From Breznakia blatticola (lineage in GTDB: Bacteria; Bacillota_I; Bacilli_A; Erysipelotrichales; Erysipelotrichaceae): a stretch of DNA of 16,785 bases. Where the stretch lies: positions 1 through 16,785 of the forward strand of contig NZ_SODD01000051.1 in NCBI RefSeq assembly GCF_004365815.1, written 5' to 3'. Below, in pieces: positions 6,001-16,705 of the stretch (positions are counted from its first letter, which is position 1; each line of letters opens with the position of its first letter). The position numbers and the translations under genes were made by a program. Below the pieces are notes generated by a model that was not told the origin of the DNA, did not search any database, and was given only the letters and a program-made list of their open reading frames with translations.

Positions 6001-6278
6001 TGTCCACCTAGTGTTCCCAAAATTGCATCTGGTTTTTCTTTATGGATAATTTTCGATGCAAATTCAAGTGTCAATGGTTCAATATACACTTTGTCAGCAA
6101 TTTCACGATCTGTCATGATGGTTGCTGGGTTTGAGTTAATTAAGATTACTTCATAGCCTTCTTCACGTAAAGCCTGGCATGCTTGGGTTCCTGCATAATC
6201 AAATTCTGCAGCTTGTCCAATGACGATTGGTCCAGAACCAATCACCATAATTTTTTTAATATCGTTGCGTTTTGGCAT
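3087..6278 (-). CDS. carB: Carbamoyl-phosphate synthase large subunit
   Basis: 1063 aa with duplicated ATP-grasp halves: [24 protein letters not shown] at the N-terminus and [19 protein letters not shown] mid-protein. The C-terminal domain is MGS-like. TAATG overlap with the carA stop. Confidence 0.97.
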
Positions 6279-7357
6279 TATTTATTTCCCCCTTGTGCAT
6301 CCATTACTCTCATAAATGTGTCAAATAAGTAGTTTGCATCTTCTGGTCCAGGTGCAGCTTCTGGGTGGTATTGCACACTGAATAAGTTCTTTTCAGGACA
6401 AGCAAGACCTTCAACACTTTTATCATTTAAGTTACGGTGTGTAACTTCTAAATCTGTATTTGCCAAACTTTCTTCATTTACTGAAAATGAGTGGTTTTGA
6501 CTTGTGATTTCTACTTTACCTGTAAGTAAGTTCATAACTGGTTGGTTCGCTCCACGGTGTCCAAATTTTAATTTATCGATTTTCGCACCTGAAGCAAGGG
6601 CAATTAATTGGTGACCTAAACAGATTCCAAAGATTGGAATTTGTCCAATAAGGGCACGAATATTTTCAATTGCTTGAGTAAGTTCACGAGGATCTCCAGG
6701 ACCATTACTTAGCATAATTCCATCTGGTTTTAAGTTCATAACTTCTTGTACCGTTGATGTATATGGCATAATTTTCAAATCACATCCTCGACTTGATAAT
6801 TCACGAACAATTCCTTGTTTTGCTCCGTAATCAATTAAGACAACACGACGTCCGCGATTTGGTACTTGAAATGCTTTTTGCGTAGAAACTTGTGCAACTT
6901 GTCCAGTTGGATATGGTGCAGCTTTCAACATGGCAACAGTTGCATCTACATCAACATCCATATCTGCCATAATGGCTTTCATCGTACCTTCTTTACGAAT
7001 TAGTTTTGTTAGTTTTCTTGTATCAATTCCAGCAAGTCCTGGAATATCATTACTTGCTAGAAATGTATCAATACTTTCATCAGAGCGCCAGTTGTTTGGA
7101 TATTCACAGTATTCACTTACAACCAATCCGAAGATTGCTGGTTCAATACTTTCAAAATCATCACGATTGATTCCATAGTTTCCAATCATTGGATATGTCA
7201 TCAAAACAATTTGTGCACAGTAACTTAAGTCACTGATTACTTCTTGATAACCACTCATTCCGGTGTTGAAGACAATTTCTCCCATTTGATAGTTACTTCC
7301 ACCAAATCCTTCACCTACGAATACACTTCCATCTTCTAATATTAACTGTCTTTTCAT
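6278..7357 (-). CDS. carA: Carbamoyl-phosphate synthase small (glutaminase) subunit
   Basis: 359 aa. Class-I amidotransferase nucleophile elbow GICLGHQ and C-terminal HPE triad context (VQYHPEA). An AGGAGG RBS lies upstream. Confidence 0.96.
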
Positions 7358-9514: not shown

Positions 9515-9535
9515 CGTGTTTCCTCCAATTTTCCT

Positions 9536-9573
9536 AAAAGAAAAGGTCCTTGCAAATATGCAAAAGGACCTTT
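9536..9573 (-). terminator. Attenuator terminator in the pyrB leader
   Basis: Minus-strand RNA is AAAGGUCCUUuuUGCAuauuUGCAAGGACCUUU followed by UCUUUU. That gives 10 bp, a 2-nt bulge, 3 more bp and a U-rich tail. It sits about 20 nt upstream of the pyrB RBS, so it is a leader terminator, not an end-of-gene terminator. Confidence 0.8.
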
Positions 9574-9600
9574 ATTGTTCAAAAAAAATAAAGTCTATGA

Positions 9601-9631
9601 CCTTCTTCACCTCTCTGGATGATCTTAAAGG
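9601..9631 (-). promoter_or_regulatory. PyrR-binding anti-antiterminator hairpin
   Basis: Minus-strand RNA is CCUUUAAGAUCAUCCAGAGAGGUGAAGAAGG. It contains the conserved PyrR box UCCAGAGAGG (plus-strand cctctctgga, 9610-9619), flanked by pairing CCUU/AAGG arms. It lies between a promoter and the leader terminator, as in Bacillus-type pyr attenuators. Confidence 0.78.
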
Positions 9632-9648
9632 ACCTTTTCGTTACAACT

Positions 9649-9677
9649 ATAATACCAATACTCAAGTAAAACATCAA
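9649..9677 (-). promoter_or_regulatory. Candidate sigma-A promoter of the pyr operon
   Basis: On the minus strand: TTGATG (9672-9677), a 17-nt spacer, then TATTAT (9649-9654) with a TGn extension (TGGTATTAT). It sits just upstream of the PyrR leader. Confidence 0.55.
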
Positions 9678-9679
9678 CT

Positions 9680-9706
9680 AAAAATATCACGAATTTTCAG
9701 ATTCAT
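9680..9706 (-). terminator. Weak candidate terminator after the TMEM175-like gene
   Basis: Minus-strand AUGAAU-cugaaa-AUUCGU (6 bp, AU-rich, one G.U) followed by GAUAUUUUU. The stem is weak, so read-through into the pyr leader cannot be excluded. Confidence 0.3.
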
Positions 9707-9717
9707 TTCTTGTCGTG

Positions 9718-10305
9718 TTACGATTCAATTTCTTCTAATAGTTTTTCAATTTGTCGAGAAGGAATTAACCAAGGAAGTAAACCAAAAATATACATCATCA
9801 TAATTAGTACTGGTGAGATAAATATACCAAGTAGCACTCCGATGATATTTAATGAAATTGTAATTTTTAACTTTAGATACCCTGTAGTTGTTTTAGCAAT
9901 CAATGAATGTTTACCCTGTGCTTTTACTAATTCATGTAGTACCCATGCATATGCAAGATCTGCTAGCATCAAAACTGAAGCATAAAATAACTCAGGTGCT
10001 AAATCAAATAGATGTGAATCTACCCAACGTGTCGCAAAGGGAACCAATGTTAAGATAAAAATAAATAACATGTTAGCCCATAAGATCCGTCCATTGACTT
10101 TCTTAACTGCTTGAAACATATGATGGTGGTTGTTCCAATAGATCGCTAGTGAAATAAAGGAAATAAAATACACGATAAAGGTTGTTTTCATTTCAAATAA
10201 CGAAGCGAAGGTTGGCTCCCTTGGCAGTTCTAATTCCAAAACCATGATTGTCATAATAATGGCAATAATTGCATCACTAAATGCCTCTAATCTACTTTTA
10301 CTCAT
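9718..10305 (-). CDS. TMEM175 / DUF1211 family membrane protein (putative K+ channel)
   Basis: 195 aa with six predicted hydrophobic helices. The TM1 signature RLEAFSDAIIAIIMTIMVLE matches the RxxxFSD motif of the TMEM175/DUF1211 family. ATG start with a GGAGG RBS. Confidence 0.85.
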   Translation of the reverse strand: MSKSRLEAFSDAIIAIIMTIMVLELELPREPTFASLFEMKTTFIVYFISFISLAIYWNNHHHMFQAVKKVNGRILWANMLFIFILTLVPFATRWVDSHLFDLAPELFYASVLMLADLAYAWVLHELVKAQGKHSLIAKTTTGYLKLKITISLNIIGVLLGIFISPVLIMMMYIFGLLPWLIPSRQIEKLLEEIES

Positions 10306-10344: not shown

Positions 10345-10372
10345 AAAAAAGTGCCGCGAATGCTCACGACAC
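10345..10372 (-). terminator. Rho-independent terminator of the murF-to-flavoprotein operon
   Basis: Minus-strand GUGUCGUG-agcauu-CGCGGCAC (8 bp with two G.U pairs, 10351-10372) followed by UUUUUU (10345-10350). It starts 8 nt after the stop of the 528-aa gene. Confidence 0.8.
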
Positions 10373-10379
10373 GATAGTT

Positions 10380-11966
10380 CTACTTACTGATATTTGTATT
10401 TGTGTACTTTGTAATAATTACTTCTGCACATTTCAAGCCATCAATTGCACTTGATGTGATTCCACCAGAATACCCACTACCTTCACCAATTGGATATACA
10501 TGTTTGATAGTACTGCTTTCCATGGTTTCCTTACGACAGATACGAATTGGACATGAAGAGCGTGTTTCTACTCCTGTCAGTAAAGCATTTCCATTTTTAA
10601 ATGCTTTGTTTTTCTTTTGAAACGCTCGAATTCCTTCTTGCAACTTATATGTAATGCTTTCTGGTAATAAGCGATGTAAATTCGTGTATGTTACACCTAA
10701 TGGGTATGATGGTTCAATCATTTCCCCTTCGCTATGTTCTTCTAAGAAATCACTTACGCGTTGTGCTGGTGCTTTATATGTGCTTCCAGCAAGTTCATAA
10801 GCGAGTCGCTCTAGTTTCTCTTGAAACTCGATACCCTTGAATATTCCTTCACCATAGTCACTTTCATCTACTTGCACAAGTATTGCTGCATTTGCATTTT
10901 CTTTGTCTCTTGCATAATTAGACATTCCATTAACAACAACATGTCCTTGATTACTTGTTGCTGCTACTACTTGTCCACCAGGACACATACAAAACGTATA
11001 CACGCCACAGCCTTCCACGTTATGCGTCAATCGATAACTGGCTTGCGGTAAACTTTCATGCATTGCATATTTATGGTACAGTGCTTCATTAATCGCTTTT
11101 TGCGTATGTTCAATTCGTAGTCCAACAGCAAACGGTTTACTTTCCATGAGCAATCCTTGTTTATGAAAACGATAGAAACTATCACGGCTACTATTTCCTA
11201 AGGCAAGAACAACAACATCACTACAGATTTCTTGCGTATTCACAACAATTCCCTTACATACATCATCTTCAATAATCAACTTTTCCACTTTTGAATCAAA
11301 ATGAAGCGATCCACCAAGTGCAATGATTTCCTTTCGAATACTGCGAACTACATCAATTAAAATATCACTACCAATATGTGGATATGCATCATATACAATT
11401 TCTTTAGGTGCACCATGTTCTACAAACATGTCATAGACATCTTGTACGCGATAATCTTTTGTGCGTGCTGTTAATTTTCCATCGCTGAATGTACCAGCAC
11501 CACCTTCACCGAATTGAATATTACTTTCTTCATTTAGCGTACGTGTTTGATAAAATGTTTCCACATCTTTCACCCGTTTTTCAACCTGACTTCCACGTTC
11601 AAATACACGGGGTTTATATCCTTGTCTAGCAAGTTGCAATGCACAAAACATCCCTGCTGGACCAAAGCCAACAATAATTGGTCGCGTATGCAATTCAACA
11701 ATTCCACCAACAAGCTCACTTCGTGGTTCAACAACAAGTTTACGCACATTTTTTATCTTCCTTTGTAAGATGGCATTTTCATTAACAACTTCAACATCTA
11801 GACTATAACTATACGAAACTTGATGATGCCGTGCATCGATGTTCTTTCGATAGATGGAAAAAGATTGAAGATCACTTTTCGCAATCTTCAACTTTTTTAA
11901 GATCTTTTCTTGTAAGTCACTTTCCTTTTCATCCAAGGTAAGTTTGATTTGATCCAGTCGTAACAT
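10380..11966 (-). CDS. FAD-dependent protein of unknown function (COG2509 / VP0956-like)
   Basis: 528 aa with dinucleotide-binding motif IVGFGPAGMFCALQLARQG. Family-typical blocks as I remember them from COG2509 proteins are QFGEGGAGTFSDGKL, FCMCPGGQVVAA, VVNGMSNYARDKENANAA, LLTGVETRSSCPIRI and YPIGEGSGYSGGITSSAIDG. The ATG overlaps the upstream stop (TAATG). Confidence 0.85.
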   Translation of the reverse strand: MLRLDQIKLTLDEKESDLQEKILKKLKIAKSDLQSFSIYRKNIDARHHQVSYSYSLDVEVVNENAILQRKIKNVRKLVVEPRSELVGGIVELHTRPIIVGFGPAGMFCALQLARQGYKPRVFERGSQVEKRVKDVETFYQTRTLNEESNIQFGEGGAGTFSDGKLTARTKDYRVQDVYDMFVEHGAPKEIVYDAYPHIGSDILIDVVRSIRKEIIALGGSLHFDSKVEKLIIEDDVCKGIVVNTQEICSDVVVLALGNSSRDSFYRFHKQGLLMESKPFAVGLRIEHTQKAINEALYHKYAMHESLPQASYRLTHNVEGCGVYTFCMCPGGQVVAATSNQGHVVVNGMSNYARDKENANAAILVQVDESDYGEGIFKGIEFQEKLERLAYELAGSTYKAPAQRVSDFLEEHSEGEMIEPSYPLGVTYTNLHRLLPESITYKLQEGIRAFQKKNKAFKNGNALLTGVETRSSCPIRICRKETMESSTIKHVYPIGEGSGYSGGITSSAIDGLKCAEVIITKYTNTNISK

Positions 11967-13000
11967 TAATATAAGTTCCTTAAGATTTTAAACTCTTTAC
12001 GTTTGGAAATATTATAAATTAAATATGCCAAATCAACTACGATAACTAAAACGATTACAGTTGTAAAGAAGTTATTGAATTCAATTGGTAGTATAGAAAT
12101 AATCCAAGCAAATAAAGCAAATAAGAAATAAATCAAAATACTATATGAACGATAATTCACAAAACGTGGATTGTAGTTCAAATTGAATGTTAAAACCAAA
12201 CAGAAACAATAGTAGTGTAAAGGTACTAATGTAATTAACATATACGTTTGATCACTAAATAGTCCAAGCCCTTTAATAAAGAAACCTTCAATTAAAAGTA
12301 ATACAACACATACAATGATGCGTTTTACATAGAATTCACGGTTTGTTGATACGGGTGTTTGTGCAATATAAGCACCTAGTAAAGTAAATATCGTTCCATA
12401 GAATAGTCCATTACGGGCAGTTCCAAATATATCTAAATATAGTTTTACAAGTTGTGAAATACCAGGAATTTCAGCTAGCACTGGTGTATAGACATTAATC
12501 ATCATACCAACAACAAATAAAGCCAGTCCGATTTCCAATACACGAATTGGACGTAGTTTATGCATCATGATATAGATTAGTACAGTTGAAAACATCATTG
12601 CTGGAAATATCCATAAGTGATAATAACTTCCAGTAAAGAAGAAATCACGAACGAGAAATAACAAGGCTTGTGCACTAAATTTAGCTTGTGCTAAGTTATA
12701 AATAATCGGAACAATATAGATTGCCGTCCAAATTACATACAGCTTCGCTTGACGCCATAAATAGTTCCGTAAATACATACGATTTTCGCGTTCACTTTCC
12801 TCATGGAAATCGAGTTTTCTAAAAAAGAAATATGCACTTGCAACAAAGAAAAATGGTACAGCAACTCTTCCCAAAATAAATGAGACAAAAAAGTTAGCAA
12901 TATCACTCACTCCTTTAAATGGTTGCAAGTATGCAAGAATTGCAAAAATTGCAGCAATCAACTTGAGGATATCGATTAGATAATTCTTATGGTTCTTCAT
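11966..13000 (-). CDS. Polytopic membrane protein, acyltransferase-3-like, homologous to the N-terminal membrane domain of VanT
   Basis: 344 aa and very hydrophobic, with about 10 helices. The blocks GRVAVPFFFVASAYFFF, YHLWIFPAMM and TARNGLFYG resemble the VanT membrane-domain/AT3 blocks as I recall them. An AGGAGA RBS sits immediately after the racemase stop. Confidence 0.75.
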   Translation of the reverse strand: MKNHKNYLIDILKLIAAIFAILAYLQPFKGVSDIANFFVSFILGRVAVPFFFVASAYFFFRKLDFHEESERENRMYLRNYLWRQAKLYVIWTAIYIVPIIYNLAQAKFSAQALLFLVRDFFFTGSYYHLWIFPAMMFSTVLIYIMMHKLRPIRVLEIGLALFVVGMMINVYTPVLAEIPGISQLVKLYLDIFGTARNGLFYGTIFTLLGAYIAQTPVSTNREFYVKRIIVCVVLLLIEGFFIKGLGLFSDQTYMLITLVPLHYYCFCLVLTFNLNYNPRFVNYRSYSILIYFLFALFAWIISILPIEFNNFFTTVIVLVIVVDLAYLIYNISKRKEFKILRNLY

Positions 13001-13009
13001 AGGTTCTCC

Positions 13010-14164
13010 TTAATCTTTTTTTATATAAAATCTAGGTACACGTGAAGCCAGTAAAGTAAACGATTCATTGTTTATCGTATTTGCAGCTCTTGAAAGCTCA
13101 TCAATTTTAATTACTTCATCCCCATCTATCCCCACGATGGTTACTTCATCTTCACAGTGTACATCAAGTCCAGTTGCATCAATCATAAATTGATCCATAC
13201 AAATGTTCCCGATGATGGTACAACGTTTTCCTTTTACGAGCACTTGTAAGCCTTTATGCGAGGCATTACGGTTTAATCCATCTGCATATCCACATGCAAC
13301 CGTTGCGACTTGTATATCGCTTGTTGCTTGATAATTACGCCCATATCCAATATACGTACCAGCTTTTACTTGCTTTACACAAGATATTTGTGCTTTCCAG
13401 GTAAGAACAGGTTCAAGATCACAAGGAACTTTTAATGGTTGTGCATCATCACTTGTATTTCCTAACAGTAGAATTCCAATACGTGCATAATCATATGGTA
13501 AATTTGGATAGTTAATTGCTCCATAACTATTTTGAATATGTTTAATCTTCACTGGTAAATTTGCAACTGCTAAATCTTGTAAGACTCTTTCATATAATTC
13601 AATTTGATGGAATGTATATGCTTCATCGTCATCTCGGTCAAACGTATCTGCTACACTAAAGTGCGAGAATACCCCTTCAACTTCCAAATGATCACATGTA
13701 TAGACTGCTTTTACTTCATCAATATGATAGTTATCATCTAAACAAGGAAAGCCAATACGTCCCATTCCTGTATCTACTTTAATATGTACACGAATCTTTA
13801 CATTTTGTGTAGTTGCATATGTATTCAACGTTTGTGCAAACTCTGTTGAAAACACACATTGTACAATATCTAATTCATGTAAGTAATGAAAGTGTTCACT
13901 TGGTGTAAATCCAAGGATTAAGATATTTGCTTTGATCCCGTTTTGACGTAAACGCACAGCTTCATCCACACTACTTACAGCAAAGAAATCACAACCCTCA
14001 TTTTCTAAAAGTGAGGCAACTTTTACATCTCCATGATGATACGCATCAGCTTTCACTACTGCCATAATCTTCGTATCATGAATATGCTTATCCATCACAT
14101 GATAGTTATGAACAATCTTGTTTTCGTCAATTTCGACCCAAGTTCTTTTTTTACTTTGTAGCAT
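13010..14164 (-). CDS. alr: PLP-dependent alanine/serine racemase (VanT catalytic-domain-like), soluble
   Basis: PLP-lysine motif MAVVKADAYHHG, second catalytic region YIGYGRNY, and CGYADG. I start it at ATG 14164 (MLQSKKRTWVEID, 384 aa), which has a GGAGAA RBS 7 nt upstream. The track starts it at TTG 14188. Confidence 0.9.
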   Translation of the reverse strand: MLQSKKRTWVEIDENKIVHNYHVMDKHIHDTKIMAVVKADAYHHGDVKVASLLENEGCDFFAVSSVDEAVRLRQNGIKANILILGFTPSEHFHYLHELDIVQCVFSTEFAQTLNTYATTQNVKIRVHIKVDTGMGRIGFPCLDDNYHIDEVKAVYTCDHLEVEGVFSHFSVADTFDRDDDEAYTFHQIELYERVLQDLAVANLPVKIKHIQNSYGAINYPNLPYDYARIGILLLGNTSDDAQPLKVPCDLEPVLTWKAQISCVKQVKAGTYIGYGRNYQATSDIQVATVACGYADGLNRNASHKGLQVLVKGKRCTIIGNICMDQFMIDATGLDVHCEDEVTIVGIDGDEVIKIDELSRAANTINNESFTLLASRVPRFYIKKD

Positions 14165-15221
14165 TTGCTTTCTCCAAAGCAAGTTCAAGTAATGTATCTA
14201 GTAGTTTTGGAAAATCATAACCAACATTTGCCATCATACTTGGATAACGACTTGCTGATGTAAATCCTGGAATTGTATTAATCTCATTGAAGAATATTTT
14301 TTCATCATCATCAATAAACATATCAATTCTTGATAATCCACTACATCCAAGCACATGATAGATCGTTTTCGCATATGCTTTAATTTCTGCTTTTTTCTCA
14401 TCTGATATTCTTGCAGGACAATGTATTTGTGTATTTTCTAATTCATATTTTGCATCATAATCAAAGAAAGAATTATGTGTTTCAATTTCATCCACATCTC
14501 CAATAATTAGTGCATCATTTCCTAATACTGAACTTCCTACTTCAAATCCAGAAATTCCACTTTCAATGACAATTTTATCATCATATGCATATGCAAAATC
14601 GATCGCTTTTTCTAAATCATCCATAACATTCACTTTACTAATTCCAAAACTACTTCCTGCATTTGCAGGTTTCACAAATAATGGAAATTGAAGTTTTGCT
14701 TCAACTTGTTTTACGATCTGTGCCATTGTTTGTGGCATGTTTTTACGTAAAGCGATATATGGTGCCATTGGAATTCCTGCACTCTCACAAATGATATGTG
14801 TGTATTCTTTGTCCATTGCAATTGCACTACTTACATGATTACAACCAACGTATGGAATTTGTGATAATGTGAAAAGTCCTTGAATCGTTCCATCTTCTCC
14901 ATTTTTACCATGTAAAATAGGAAGTAAAACATCTAACTTTTTCGTTGTATATGTTCCATTTTCAAGAATCAATAATCCTTCTTGTTTTGAAGGAGATAGT
15001 AACGCACGTGTCGCATGTCCACTTTCTAACCAGTGATCATGTTCAAGTGTATCAATATCACCATCATATACATACCAGTTTCCATTTGGATCAATTCCAA
15101 TCATGGTTACGTCGTATTTATTTGCATCTAAGTTACGCAAAACACTAGCGACAGAGTGTAAAGATACAGGATATTCACTTGAATTCCCACCAAAAATAAC
15201 TCCTACTTGTAGTTTACTCAT
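14151..15221 (-). CDS. ddl: D-alanine--D-X ligase of the Van clade, predicted D-Ala--D-Ser ligase
   Basis: 356 aa ATP-grasp Ddl fold (VIFGGNSSEYPVSL, FNEINTIPGFTSASRYP). Van-type rather than housekeeping motifs are HGKNGEDG, PYVGC and GFEVGSSVLG, plus an omega-loop SFFDYDAKY with Phe at the DdlB Tyr216 position. Family membership is certain. The D-Ser specificity is inferred. Confidence 0.9.
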   Translation of the reverse strand: MSKLQVGVIFGGNSSEYPVSLHSVASVLRNLDANKYDVTMIGIDPNGNWYVYDGDIDTLEHDHWLESGHATRALLSPSKQEGLLILENGTYTTKKLDVLLPILHGKNGEDGTIQGLFTLSQIPYVGCNHVSSAIAMDKEYTHIICESAGIPMAPYIALRKNMPQTMAQIVKQVEAKLQFPLFVKPANAGSSFGISKVNVMDDLEKAIDFAYAYDDKIVIESGISGFEVGSSVLGNDALIIGDVDEIETHNSFFDYDAKYELENTQIHCPARISDEKKAEIKAYAKTIYHVLGCSGLSRIDMFIDDDEKIFFNEINTIPGFTSASRYPSMMANVGYDFPKLLDTLLELALEKANATK

Positions 15222-16596
15222 ATTTACCTCTTAATTTATCAACAACTTTATCTAGTTGCATTCCTCGACTTCCTTTAATCAAAACTGCAATTGAATGATT
15301 TTCTAGACTTTCTAAATAATCAACAATTGCATCATGACTATCCATATGCTGATACACCTTGTTTGGTGCAATTTTACTTGCTTGTTCAATATAATACTTT
15401 GATAATGGTCCATATGCAATCAATTCATCAAACGAACTATTTGCTACATATGCTCCAACTTGTTTGTGATACATTTTCTCATCTGGCTCTAAATCTAACA
15501 TATCTCCTAAAATAACAACACGATATGCACCTTCAATACCAGCAAATGCATCAATTGCAGCTTGTGCACTTTCCGGGTTTGATTTATAACTGTCATTCAA
15601 AATTGTAAAACGATCAATTTTAACTACTTCATTACGCATACCTGTTGGCTCATACATATCAAAGCCAGCTTGGATTTGTTGATCTCTAAGACCTAGCTTT
15701 TTTAAACACGCAATTGCTGCTAAGGCATTAATTGCTTGATGTTTTCCAATGGTTTGGATATGAAATGTAGCGTTCGTAGCGCTTGTTGTAAAGTAAATCA
15801 TATCATCTTTTTGGGTAAATGAAGTCAGTTGAATTTGATTATCATCCTGTTCTCCATAACGTATACGTTCTACTGGTACATCTTGTTTTTCATCAATAAC
15901 TTTGGCAAGAAATGGATCATCTCCATAATAGACAAAAAGACCATCATTAGGTAAATCATCCATAATTTCAAGTTTTGCACGAGCAACGTTCTCTTTCGAA
16001 CCCAGAGTTGCTAAGTGTGCAGCACCAACACCAGTTAAAATCGACATCGTTGGTTGTACCATCGGATTTAAAAATGCGATATCTCCGACATTTTCAACAC
16101 CCATCTCACAAACGATAACATCTGTGTCTTTGCTTGCTCTTAGTAAAGTAATCGGAACACCGATTTCATTGTTTTGATTTCCTAATGTTTTTGTTACTTT
16201 GTAAGTAGCCATTAAACCAGCTGCAAGAATATCTTTTGTGGAAGTCTTTCCATTACTTCCCGTGATTCCAATTACTTGTATGTCCAATGACTCACGATAC
16301 GCCTTTGCTAAGTCCTGTAAAGCTTTTACACTATCTTCTACAAGTAATGTAGCTATACTGCTTGTCACAAATGCTTCGTTATCAATAATTGCTAGTACTG
16401 CACCTTGCTTGCTGGCACTATCGATATATGTATGTCCATCAACACGTTCTCCAGCAATTGCAATATATATATTGTCCTGTTCGATGATTCGCGAATCTGT
16501 TGAAACTCCAGCAACTCTTTGGTCTGCTGCAGCTCCATTTAATTGTAATGAACCACCAATCATTTCTTGAATACCTTGAATGGTATGAATTAACAT
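15214..16596 (-). CDS. murF: UDP-N-acetylmuramoyl-tripeptide--D-alanyl-D-alanine ligase
   Basis: Mur ligase P-loop GITGSNGKTSTKD and MurF-like N- and C-terminal domains. I start it at ATG 16596 (MLIHTIQG, 460 aa) with an AGGAGG RBS at 16602-16609. The track's TTG start at 16680 would run through the promoter. Confidence 0.93.
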   Translation of the reverse strand: MLIHTIQGIQEMIGGSLQLNGAAADQRVAGVSTDSRIIEQDNIYIAIAGERVDGHTYIDSASKQGAVLAIIDNEAFVTSSIATLLVEDSVKALQDLAKAYRESLDIQVIGITGSNGKTSTKDILAAGLMATYKVTKTLGNQNNEIGVPITLLRASKDTDVIVCEMGVENVGDIAFLNPMVQPTMSILTGVGAAHLATLGSKENVARAKLEIMDDLPNDGLFVYYGDDPFLAKVIDEKQDVPVERIRYGEQDDNQIQLTSFTQKDDMIYFTTSATNATFHIQTIGKHQAINALAAIACLKKLGLRDQQIQAGFDMYEPTGMRNEVVKIDRFTILNDSYKSNPESAQAAIDAFAGIEGAYRVVILGDMLDLEPDEKMYHKQVGAYVANSSFDELIAYGPLSKYYIEQASKIAPNKVYQHMDSHDAIVDYLESLENHSIAVLIKGSRGMQLDKVVDKLRGKYE

Positions 16597-16624: not shown

Positions 16625-16652
16625 ATTATAGCATAATCGCTATCTAGGTGAA
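16625..16652 (-). promoter_or_regulatory. Sigma-A promoter of the murF operon
   Basis: Minus-strand TGCTATAAT is a perfect extended -10 (TATAAT at 16625-16630, TG at 16632-16633). The -35-like hexamer TTCACC (16647-16652) sits at a 16-nt spacing. The predicted leader to the RBS is only about 20 nt. Confidence 0.6.
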
Positions 16653-16678: not shown

Positions 16679-16705
16679 AAAAAAAGACACCCGAAATGGA
16701 TGTCT
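16679..16705 (-). terminator. rRNA operon terminator
   Basis: Minus-strand AGACAUCC-auuuc-GGGUGUCU (8 bp, 16685-16705) followed by a U-run (A7 on plus at 16679-16685). It lies directly 3' of the 5S rRNA. Confidence 0.8.

Follow-up and report, generated by a model that had tools for sequence, protein, structure and literature searches.

The murF locus and its distribution

This work concerns a window of 16,785 nucleotides, the whole analysed stretch of contig NZ_SODD01000051.1 of Breznakia blatticola, and in particular five packed genes that run in the order murF, VanG-like ligase (ddl), racemase, polytopic membrane protein of the acyltransferase-3 (AT3) family and FAD-dependent protein. In common with all the long open reading frames (ORFs) of the window, these genes lie on the minus strand. 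As we argue below, the locus is probably a housekeeping operon of the D-Ala-D-Ser type, in which a racemase of apparent VanT ancestry is followed by an AT3 protein that seems to be of separate descent. The features of the locus are as follows.

16685-16705: terminator-like hairpin, ending the unit that precedes murF
16625-16652, minus strand: promoter-like site ahead of murF (TTCACC, 16 nt, TG-TATAAT), a consensus match only, at 10 of 12 positions, with an extended -10
15214-16596, minus strand: murF, 460 aa, with its ATG at 16596; 377 bits with the TIGR01143 murF model, above the cut-off
14151-15221, minus strand: VanG-like D-Ala:D-X ligase, 356 aa, of putative D-Ala:D-Ser specificity
13010-14164, minus strand: soluble racemase, 384 aa, apparently a Ser/Ala racemase of the VanT type
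13001-13009, minus strand: 9-nt spacer, evident from the sequence itself, with a ribosome-binding site, AAGGAG (13006-13011), that extends into the stop codon of the racemase
11966-13000, minus strand: AT3 polytopic membrane protein, 344 aa, with its ATG at 13000
10380-11966, minus strand: VP0956-like FAD-dependent protein (DUF8436 and FAD-depend_C), 528 aa
10351-10372, minus strand: terminator-like hairpin and T-run, 8 nt past the stop codon of the FAD gene (9-pair stem with 5 G-C pairs, then TTTTTT)

The murF stop and the ddl start overlap by 8 nt, the ddl stop and the racemase start by 14 nt, and on the far side of the 9-nt spacer the AT3 stop and the ATG of the FAD gene overlap by 1 nt in the sequence TAATG; the hairpin at 10351-10372 is predicted to end the five-gene unit. 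The start of murF was picked by the length of its homologues (452-460 aa). The racemase ORF (13010-14188) opens at a TTG, and the ATG at 14164 gives a protein of 384 aa (MLQSKKRTW...), in line with more than 100 homologues, which measure 380-390 aa; the TAA of the racemase occupies 13010-13012. The original prediction for this DNA, that 9 nt separate a 384-aa racemase from the 344-aa polytopic protein that follows it, proved exact in its coordinates, and the racemase-then-AT3 order was confirmed.

When the window was scanned with domain and family models, no vanRS, vanXY or vanW was detected. An acquired van operon would be expected to hold vanRS together with a VanXY or VanX D,D-peptidase in the cluster; both are present in a genuine vanG cluster (locus L033) and neither is found in the window. 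The original prediction had read the racemase and membrane genes without the context of their locus, and that context is a housekeeping murF-ddl operon as in [Clostridium] innocuum.

To survey the locus in Erysipelotrichia, a single genome of each species was scanned, and the five operon proteins of the window were then used as tblastn queries. The murF-ddl-racemase-AT3-FAD block was found in 18 species representatives, including members of Breznakia, Longicatena, Faecalicoccus, Ileibacterium, Merdibacter, Floccifex, Holdemanella and Absicoccus. Further carriers are Erysipelotrichaceae bacterium MTC7, Breznakia sp. PF5-3, [Eubacterium] hominis and a metagenome-assembled genome (MAG) of [C.] innocuum, which brings the total to more than 20 Erysipelotrichia species, and the racemase-then-AT3 pair occurs at about 27 loci. 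The chromosomal flanks of the block differ between these genomes. MTC7 holds the closest relative of the window operon (79-89% identity); its AT3 is the nearest to that of the window (79%), followed by that of Breznakia (46%). A search of public assemblies for exact copies of the window AT3 gave no match.

The synonymous divergence (dS) between the window and MTC7 is about 1.2-1.6, indicating that these genes are old. Ratios of nonsynonymous to synonymous divergence (dN/dS) against MTC7 were 0.13 for murF, 0.10 for the racemase and 0.12 for the AT3 gene. Because the layout is stable across so many species and the racemase and AT3 genes are under purifying selection (dN/dS 0.10-0.12), we conclude that the pair is not a VanT that has been broken or split by a frameshift or a stop codon, and in this respect the original prediction holds.

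The adjacency of racemase and AT3, on whose conservation that prediction was staked, is kept in many relatives, but AT3 was missing in three of the four racemase-seeded look-ups in Erysipelotrichia. Dielma has murF-ddl-racemase only, in Anaerorhabdus the FAD gene lies 5' of murF (FAD-murF-ddl-racemase), and in one MAG (L093) it lies directly 3' of the racemase (murF-ddl-racemase-FAD). The FAD gene thus stays linked to murF-ddl-racemase even where there is no AT3, and the racemases of all three AT3-less operons retain the Tyr-Ser-Asn-Asn signature described below.

The racemase and the ligase

The racemase has both Pfam domains of the Alr-type pyridoxal phosphate (PLP) fold, Ala_racemase_N and Ala_racemase_C (204 and 146 bits), and it passes the TIGR00492 alr model; its best solved structure is 4ECL, the catalytic domain of VanT_G. 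In the racemase alignment, the VVKADAY motif and the conserved Tyr show no variation. At residue 43 (14035-14037), beside the PLP-lysine motif, the window protein reads AYHHG where the clade consensus and other Alr and VanT proteins read AYGHG.

It has been established by mutagenesis that Asn696 of VanT_G decides the use of serine, as part of a signature made up of Tyr543, Ser567, Thr695 and Asn696 (PMC4542195). The corresponding residues of the window racemase are Tyr-Ser-Asn-Asn, so that three of the four VanT_G positions match, the Asn696 equivalent included, and the position equivalent to 695 carries the Asn of Alr. This same combination occurs in each of the 28 Erysipelotrichia racemases examined. 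For comparison, VanT has Tyr-Ser-Thr-Asn, clostridial VanT domains have Tyr-Ser-Thr/Ser-Asn and ordinary Alr has Ala-Pro-Asn-Tyr (Ala-Pro-x-Tyr). As background we used a metagenome scan that was seeded with Erysipelotrichia racemases, and which returned only relatives of at most 42% identity and so gives no unbiased estimate of AT3 presence for the class. Among 78 background racemases without an AT3 hit, the Asn696 position was Tyr in 70 and Asn in 5, of which three had the complete Tyr-Ser-Thr-Asn signature of VanT.

Neighbour-joining recovered the Erysipelotrichia racemases as a monophyletic group (100/100 bootstraps), and they formed a clade with VanT catalytic domains in 99/100 when the outgroup consisted of three solved Alr enzymes and the Paenibacillaceae racemases. 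With 75 further Alr sequences the same clade was recovered in 26 of 40 replicates, and the smallest clade gained only three members, all of them with Tyr-Ser-Thr-Asn. On the basis of the signature residues and of the clade with VanT catalytic domains, we conclude that the window racemase is VanT-like, and its sequence points to an ancestry in common with the VanT catalytic domain. A stand-alone racemase on another contig (L094, 3248-4417) also has Tyr-Ser-Thr-Asn and is the neighbour-joining sister of the Erysipelotrichia clade; this contig ends directly after the gene, and a neighbouring ORF (1851-2654) shows an odd pairing of Shikimate_dh_N and HATPase_c domains.

The best solved structure for the ligase is 4FU0, which is VanG, although the protein also passes the NCBI generic D-Ala-D-Ala ligase subfamily model. 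It was united with VanG and VanA in a Van-type clade in 100/100 bootstraps, the branching inside this clade being unresolved by neighbour-joining. Meziane-Cherif et al. (2012) reportedly identified Asp243, Phe252 and Arg324 as determinants of VanG, and equivalents of all three are present in 25 of 25 Erysipelotrichia ligases, whereas the housekeeping-type ligases in the sample have Gly-Phe-Met. In an Ileibacterium sp. MAG (L016, 2433-4787) murF and a Van-type ddl lie in one unbroken ORF of 784 aa, which reflects either a genuine fusion of MurF with Ddl or a fault of the assembly.

The AT3 membrane protein

The fourth protein of the operon matches Pfam Acyl_transf_3 (PF01757) over its full length (residues 8-329), as expected for an AT3 fold of about 330 residues. 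It matches just two NCBIfam models, both of VanT membrane parts, namely vanT-CELN (E 2e-30, positions 4-326 of 697) and vanT-L-mem (E 4e-21, with 76 bits against a cut-off of 675). An exhaustive profile search showed how large the subfamily is, with 3253 cluster representatives at E<1e-3, 1480 of them at E<1e-10, and only 4 of the best 150 representatives were of fused length. Stand-alone AT3s without a nearby racemase score 98-145 bits with the VanT model and the Erysipelotrichia operon AT3s 106-151 bits; since stand-alone AT3s from polysaccharide clusters score as well as the operon proteins, matches to VanT models alone over-call 'VanT'. The resemblance to the VanT N-terminal domain that had been predicted for the second protein is real at the level of the AT3 subfamily, to which the 1480 representatives belong, but it is no closer than that of unlinked AT3s.

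Three stand-alone AT3s of the same subfamily (L028, L036 and L061, at about 6001-7040) lie within polysaccharide clusters with EpsG, GT4 glycosyltransferases and a flippase. A further locus (L064, 5070-5990) has a VanW-domain gene directly 5' of an AT3 whose neighbourhood holds neither racemase nor ligase, and one operon AT3 (P0033) is labelled 'serine/alanine racemase' by JGI.

Identity values place the operon proteins apart from VanT. The mean identity of window-clade AT3s is 29.2% with fused VanT N-domains, 28.4% with AT3-only proteins and 27.5% with distant AT3s, so that the window AT3 is not nearer to VanT N-domains than to racemase-unlinked AT3s. Taken together, the Erysipelotrichia AT3s show 28-29% identity to each VanT-type group, to unlinked AT3s and to distant AT3s alike, and 44% mean identity among themselves; the mutual identity of fused VanT N-domains, canonical-order split AT3s and Paenibacillaceae AT3s is 39-43%. 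The outgroup chosen for the AT3 tree was not monophyletic and unrooted split tests were therefore used. In neighbour-joining analysis a split that separates the VanT-type AT3s from the Erysipelotrichia and other stand-alone AT3s was recovered in 99/100 bootstraps, while a grouping of Erysipelotrichia with VanT-type AT3s appeared in 0-8/100. These comparisons argue that the AT3 protein is not a detached VanT N-domain, and that, although the two share a broad AT3 subfamily, the window protein falls outside the clade of VanT-type membrane parts. The designation of the pair as a VanT split in inverted order, which headed the original prediction, is accordingly unsupported for its membrane half, with its 28-29% identity to every group and the 99/100 split.

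Members of the subfamily are nevertheless associated with racemases in four layouts, which are fused, AT3-racemase, racemase-AT3 and racemase-vanXY-AT3. The fused layout is that of VanT (about 710 aa) in the vanRS-vanG-vanXY-vanT clusters of Clostridia, canonical-order splits with AT3 before racemase, like VanL, were found at six loci (L020, L040, L058, L063, L072 and L080), and the racemase-then-AT3 layout is that of Erysipelotrichia. The fourth occurs in Paenibacillaceae as ddl-racemase-vanXY-AT3 (L029, 2926-6999; also L042, L049, L052, L053, L055, L065, L067, L070, L077 and L086, with L031 in another order). The racemase-first order is therefore not unique to Erysipelotrichia, as Paenibacillaceae also have the racemase 5' of a separate AT3. 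Their AT3 is a genuine VanT-type membrane part (238 bits, 39-40% identity to VanT N-domains), but their ligase is of housekeeping type (Gly-Phe-Met) and their racemase reads Ala-Pro-x-Gln, like T. tengcongensis Alr1, which makes the Paenibacillaceae cluster the reverse mosaic of the window. These clusters may be an undescribed type, and we know of no description of them. The AT3, racemase and ligase parts appear from these comparisons to have been mixed and matched between clusters.

Among 80 Alr-family racemases on metagenome contigs, AT3 neighbours were found only beside the three VanT-type racemases and beside none of the approximately 75 ordinary ones, and the adjacency is thus no accident. 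That ordinary racemases never adjoin AT3 in this sample argues for a real functional tie of the AT3 subfamily to D-amino-acid supply, regardless of the descent of its members.

The His of the first transmembrane helix (TM1) of AT3 acyltransferases is needed for acyl transfer. In the window AT3 it is replaced by Tyr24 (codon 12929-12931, minus strand), and Tyr is also found at this position in MTC7 (L001/L002), Breznakia pachnodae (L008) and P0004. Of 91 relatives 87 retain the His, as does every one of the 21 fused VanT N-domains. We considered that the His to Tyr change might mark a pseudogene or a decaying gene, and this was ruled out by the dN/dS of the AT3 gene and by the retention of every other conserved residue. 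Because the TM1 His has been lost under purifying selection, the evidence leans, weakly, towards a non-acyltransferase role in the AT3 clade of the window.

Role of the operon and the genes around it

We consider it fairly likely that the locus represents a lineage-wide housekeeping operon of the D-Ala-D-Ser type in Erysipelotrichia, with a racemase of VanT ancestry and a separately recruited accessory AT3. In such an operon the soluble racemase would make D-Ser (and D-Ala) from the L-forms, the ligase would join D-Ala to D-Ser, and the co-transcribed MurF would add the dipeptide to UDP-MurNAc-tripeptide. The outcome would be constitutive, chromosomally encoded serine-ending precursors with a low affinity for vancomycin, and thus the intrinsic low-level resistance that is reported for [C.] innocuum. 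The AT3 would have been recruited separately from the same broad subfamily and would be an accessory, translationally coupled to the racemase and missing in some lineages. It would most likely aid the supply of substrate to the racemase, through uptake or channelling of L-Ser, by analogy with the VanT membrane domain, to which L-Ser uptake is attributed in the literature as a proposal only (PMC4542195).

The closest named parallel is [C.] innocuum, whose intrinsic vancomycin resistance has been attributed to serine-ending precursors (David et al., 2004, as cited in PMC11409672). A [C.] innocuum MAG (L088) has murF-ddl-racemase-AT3-FAD in the same order as the window, on the chromosome and with no vanRS or vanXY nearby; its ligase and racemase are 49% identical to those of the window and its AT3 about 40%, and its ligase nests within the Erysipelotrichia ligase clade. 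The defining features of the [C.] innocuum type, a chromosomal Van-type ddl followed by a soluble VanT-type racemase and conserved within the lineage, are all found in the window. The 2004 study reportedly dealt with a ddl-racemase fragment of roughly 2.5 kb only. We found no published description of the downstream AT3, of the FAD gene or of the link to murF in [C.] innocuum or other Erysipelotrichia, in a search that did not extend to the full text of David et al. (2004). We conclude that the window extends the [C.] innocuum-type intrinsic operon to a further species, and shows it in a fuller form than we have found described. In the MAG (L088, 6801-10642) the racemase, AT3 and FAD genes were each recovered in two tblastn pieces, probably as a result of assembly frameshifts rather than because they are pseudogenes.

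Comparison with van operons brings out both kinship and difference. The VanG-type operon (vanRS-vanG-vanXY-vanT; Enterococcus faecalis BM4518 and clostridial homologues) supplies the nearest characterised relatives of the ligase and racemase (4FU0 and 4ECL). The D-Ser determinant residues are common to both systems, and the racemase clade of the window is sister to VanT_G-type domains. However, VanG is inducible through vanRS, has vanXY and encodes a fused AT3-racemase of about 710 aa (L033), whereas the window has no regulator or peptidase, includes murF, and has a soluble racemase with a separate, distantly related AT3 gene downstream. VanL resembles the window in having its membrane and catalytic parts in separate adjacent genes (PMC4542195), but there the order is vanTmL then vanTrL. 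In VanT and in the VanL split the AT3 is N-terminal to or upstream of the racemase; that of the window is downstream. The VanC systems of E. gallinarum and E. casseliflavus are likewise chromosomal, species-wide D-Ala-D-Ser pathways that give low-level intrinsic resistance, but their order is vanC-vanXY-vanT-vanRS, their VanT is fused and they coexist with a normal ddl, while in the window the Van-type ligase sits inside the murF operon.

Several observations weigh against the proposal of a housekeeping D-Ala-D-Ser operon with a separately recruited AT3. The ligase scores 462 bits with the NCBIfam VanG model, a near miss of the cut-off of 495, and the best NCBIfam model for the racemase, vanT-G-Cterm, gives 402 bits, under its cut-off of 460 (with vanT-L-cat the racemase scores 256 bits against a cut-off of 750). 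As both proteins score just under the NCBI cut-offs, they are relatives rather than members of the VanG and VanT-G resistance families. VanA too has Asp-Phe-Arg at the three ligase positions, and these residues therefore mark Van-type ligases generally and not D-Ser ligases specifically. L-Ser transport by VanT-like AT3s is an attribution from the literature, and the nearest stand-alone relatives of the AT3 resemble polysaccharide O-acyltransferases. The monophyly of the Erysipelotrichia AT3s is unstable (16/100). All the trees are neighbour-joining trees of limited sampling that leave out VanT-C, -E, -L and -N references; since the Erysipelotrichia AT3s evolve fast, long-branch effects may hide a true relationship of the AT3 to VanT. 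The gene census is that of the window, so that a second ddl, alr or vanXY elsewhere in the genomes would fall outside it, and the evidence for the window organism itself is comparative.

The original prediction had offered two origins for the unfused pair, independent recruitment of its parts or an ancestral unfused state from which VanT fusions arose, and of these independent recruitment fits better. For the Erysipelotrichia pair to be orthologous to both halves of VanT, fusion would have had to follow a rearrangement and the AT3 would have to look unrelated through fast evolution. The sister position of the racemase to VanT catalytic domains would accord with this, as would the placing of the AT3 in the VanT N-domain subfamily with NCBIfam matches to VanT models only, and the divergence of the Erysipelotrichia AT3s even from each other. 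We nevertheless judge it improbable, because a joint clade of Erysipelotrichia and VanT-type AT3s is hardly recovered and the separating split is strong, the AT3 is as similar to unlinked AT3s as it is to VanT N-domains, several Erysipelotrichia operons are without AT3, and a step from racemase-AT3 pair to AT3-racemase fusion requires an extra rearrangement. A recent fission and inversion of a fused vanT from a vanG-type element is scarcely credible and already contradicted. VanT_G and VanG are indeed the best solved structures for the racemase and ligase, but the racemases form a lineage-wide monophyletic clade in core chromosomal contexts with murF, the vanRS and vanXY that genuine vanG clusters carry are missing from the window, the AT3 is only about 29% identical to VanT N-domains, and the dS against MTC7 shows the genes to be old.

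The other two alternatives concern function. The AT3 might have nothing to do with the racemase and be an ordinary O-acyltransferase of an envelope polymer (peptidoglycan, teichoic acid or polysaccharide), possibly working with the FAD protein; its close stand-alone relatives lie in EpsG/GT4/flippase polysaccharide clusters, it is dispensable in some operons, and its junction with the FAD gene is as tight as that with the racemase. This we regard as unlikely, although it has some real weight. Four independent layouts tie the subfamily to Alr-family racemases, no ordinary racemase of the sample is so linked, the FAD gene remains with murF-ddl-racemase when AT3 is missing and so the two are no obligate pair, and the replacement of the TM1 His by Tyr under purifying selection argues against standard acyl transfer, given the role that this His is understood to have. 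It is very unlikely, in our view, that the operon is an ordinary D-Ala-D-Ala pathway in which the ligase makes D-Ala-D-Ala only, the racemase is the alanine racemase of the cell and the resemblance to VanT and VanG is phylogenetic noise. Such a pathway would fit the placement with murF, as in a normal ddl-murF unit, and the passing of the generic ligase and alr models; moreover, VanT enzymes retain alanine racemase activity (PMC4542195). It would leave unexplained the Asn at the Tyr354/Asn696 position, a mutationally proven serine determinant which is invariant in the clade together with Tyr543 and Ser567, as well as the Asp243 and Arg324 of the ligase where the sampled housekeeping-type ligases have Gly and Met, and the report of serine-ending precursors in [C.] innocuum, which has the same operon.

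The proposal of a housekeeping D-Ala-D-Ser operon would place a pathway of the vancomycin-resistance type, with VanG-like ligase and VanT-like racemase, in a housekeeping murF operon across a class of gut bacteria. The operon may explain the intrinsic vancomycin tolerance of [C.] innocuum and possibly of many of its relatives, and it is a plausible evolutionary source of vanG-type genes. The partnership of racemase and AT3 is not peculiar to fused VanT, as it occurs in the four layouts, here apparently with an AT3 of separate descent. With separate genes and relatives that naturally have no AT3, the function of the VanT membrane domain would be cleanly testable. In annotation, such genes should be neither called 'split VanT' nor flagged as acquired resistance.

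A further proposal, which we make tentatively and regard as more doubtful than probable, is that the core operon of Erysipelotrichia was the source of the vanG-type ligase and serine racemase, and that the coupling of AT3s to Alr-family racemases came about on two or more independent occasions, one in the VanT/Paenibacillaceae type and another in Erysipelotrichia. If this twofold coupling were true, the convergence would make AT3 mechanistically necessary for D-Ser supply. The AT3 of the window clade would act without the TM1 His, and hence in a non-acyltransferase role such as transport or channelling, and the long-assumed role of the VanT membrane domain would become tractable as a two-gene system.

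The FAD protein at the end of the operon resembles 3NLC (460 bits), and VP0956-like FAD proteins are about 50% identical across Firmicutes (window 10380-11966; L091 1133-2494; L093 4098-5678; L090 6001-7593). An obligate two-gene module of AT3 and FAD protein was considered and ruled out, since the FAD gene keeps company with murF-ddl-racemase where AT3 is missing and is monocistronic in Crassaminicella.

On the 3' side of the five-gene unit lie a TMEM175-like gene and then a pyrimidine operon from pyrB to pyrE. An Rfam search of the window gave no match, and neither PyrR nor any other Rfam element was detected ahead of pyrB (window 9515-9717, 9718-10305). The TMEM175-like gene, of the potassium-channel kind, stands in this interval between the cell-wall and pyrimidine operons. 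On the other side, in MTC7-type loci, an ISL3-family transposase adjoins murF upstream (L001 4798-6134; L002 213-1585), where the window has only the terminator and the promoter-like site.

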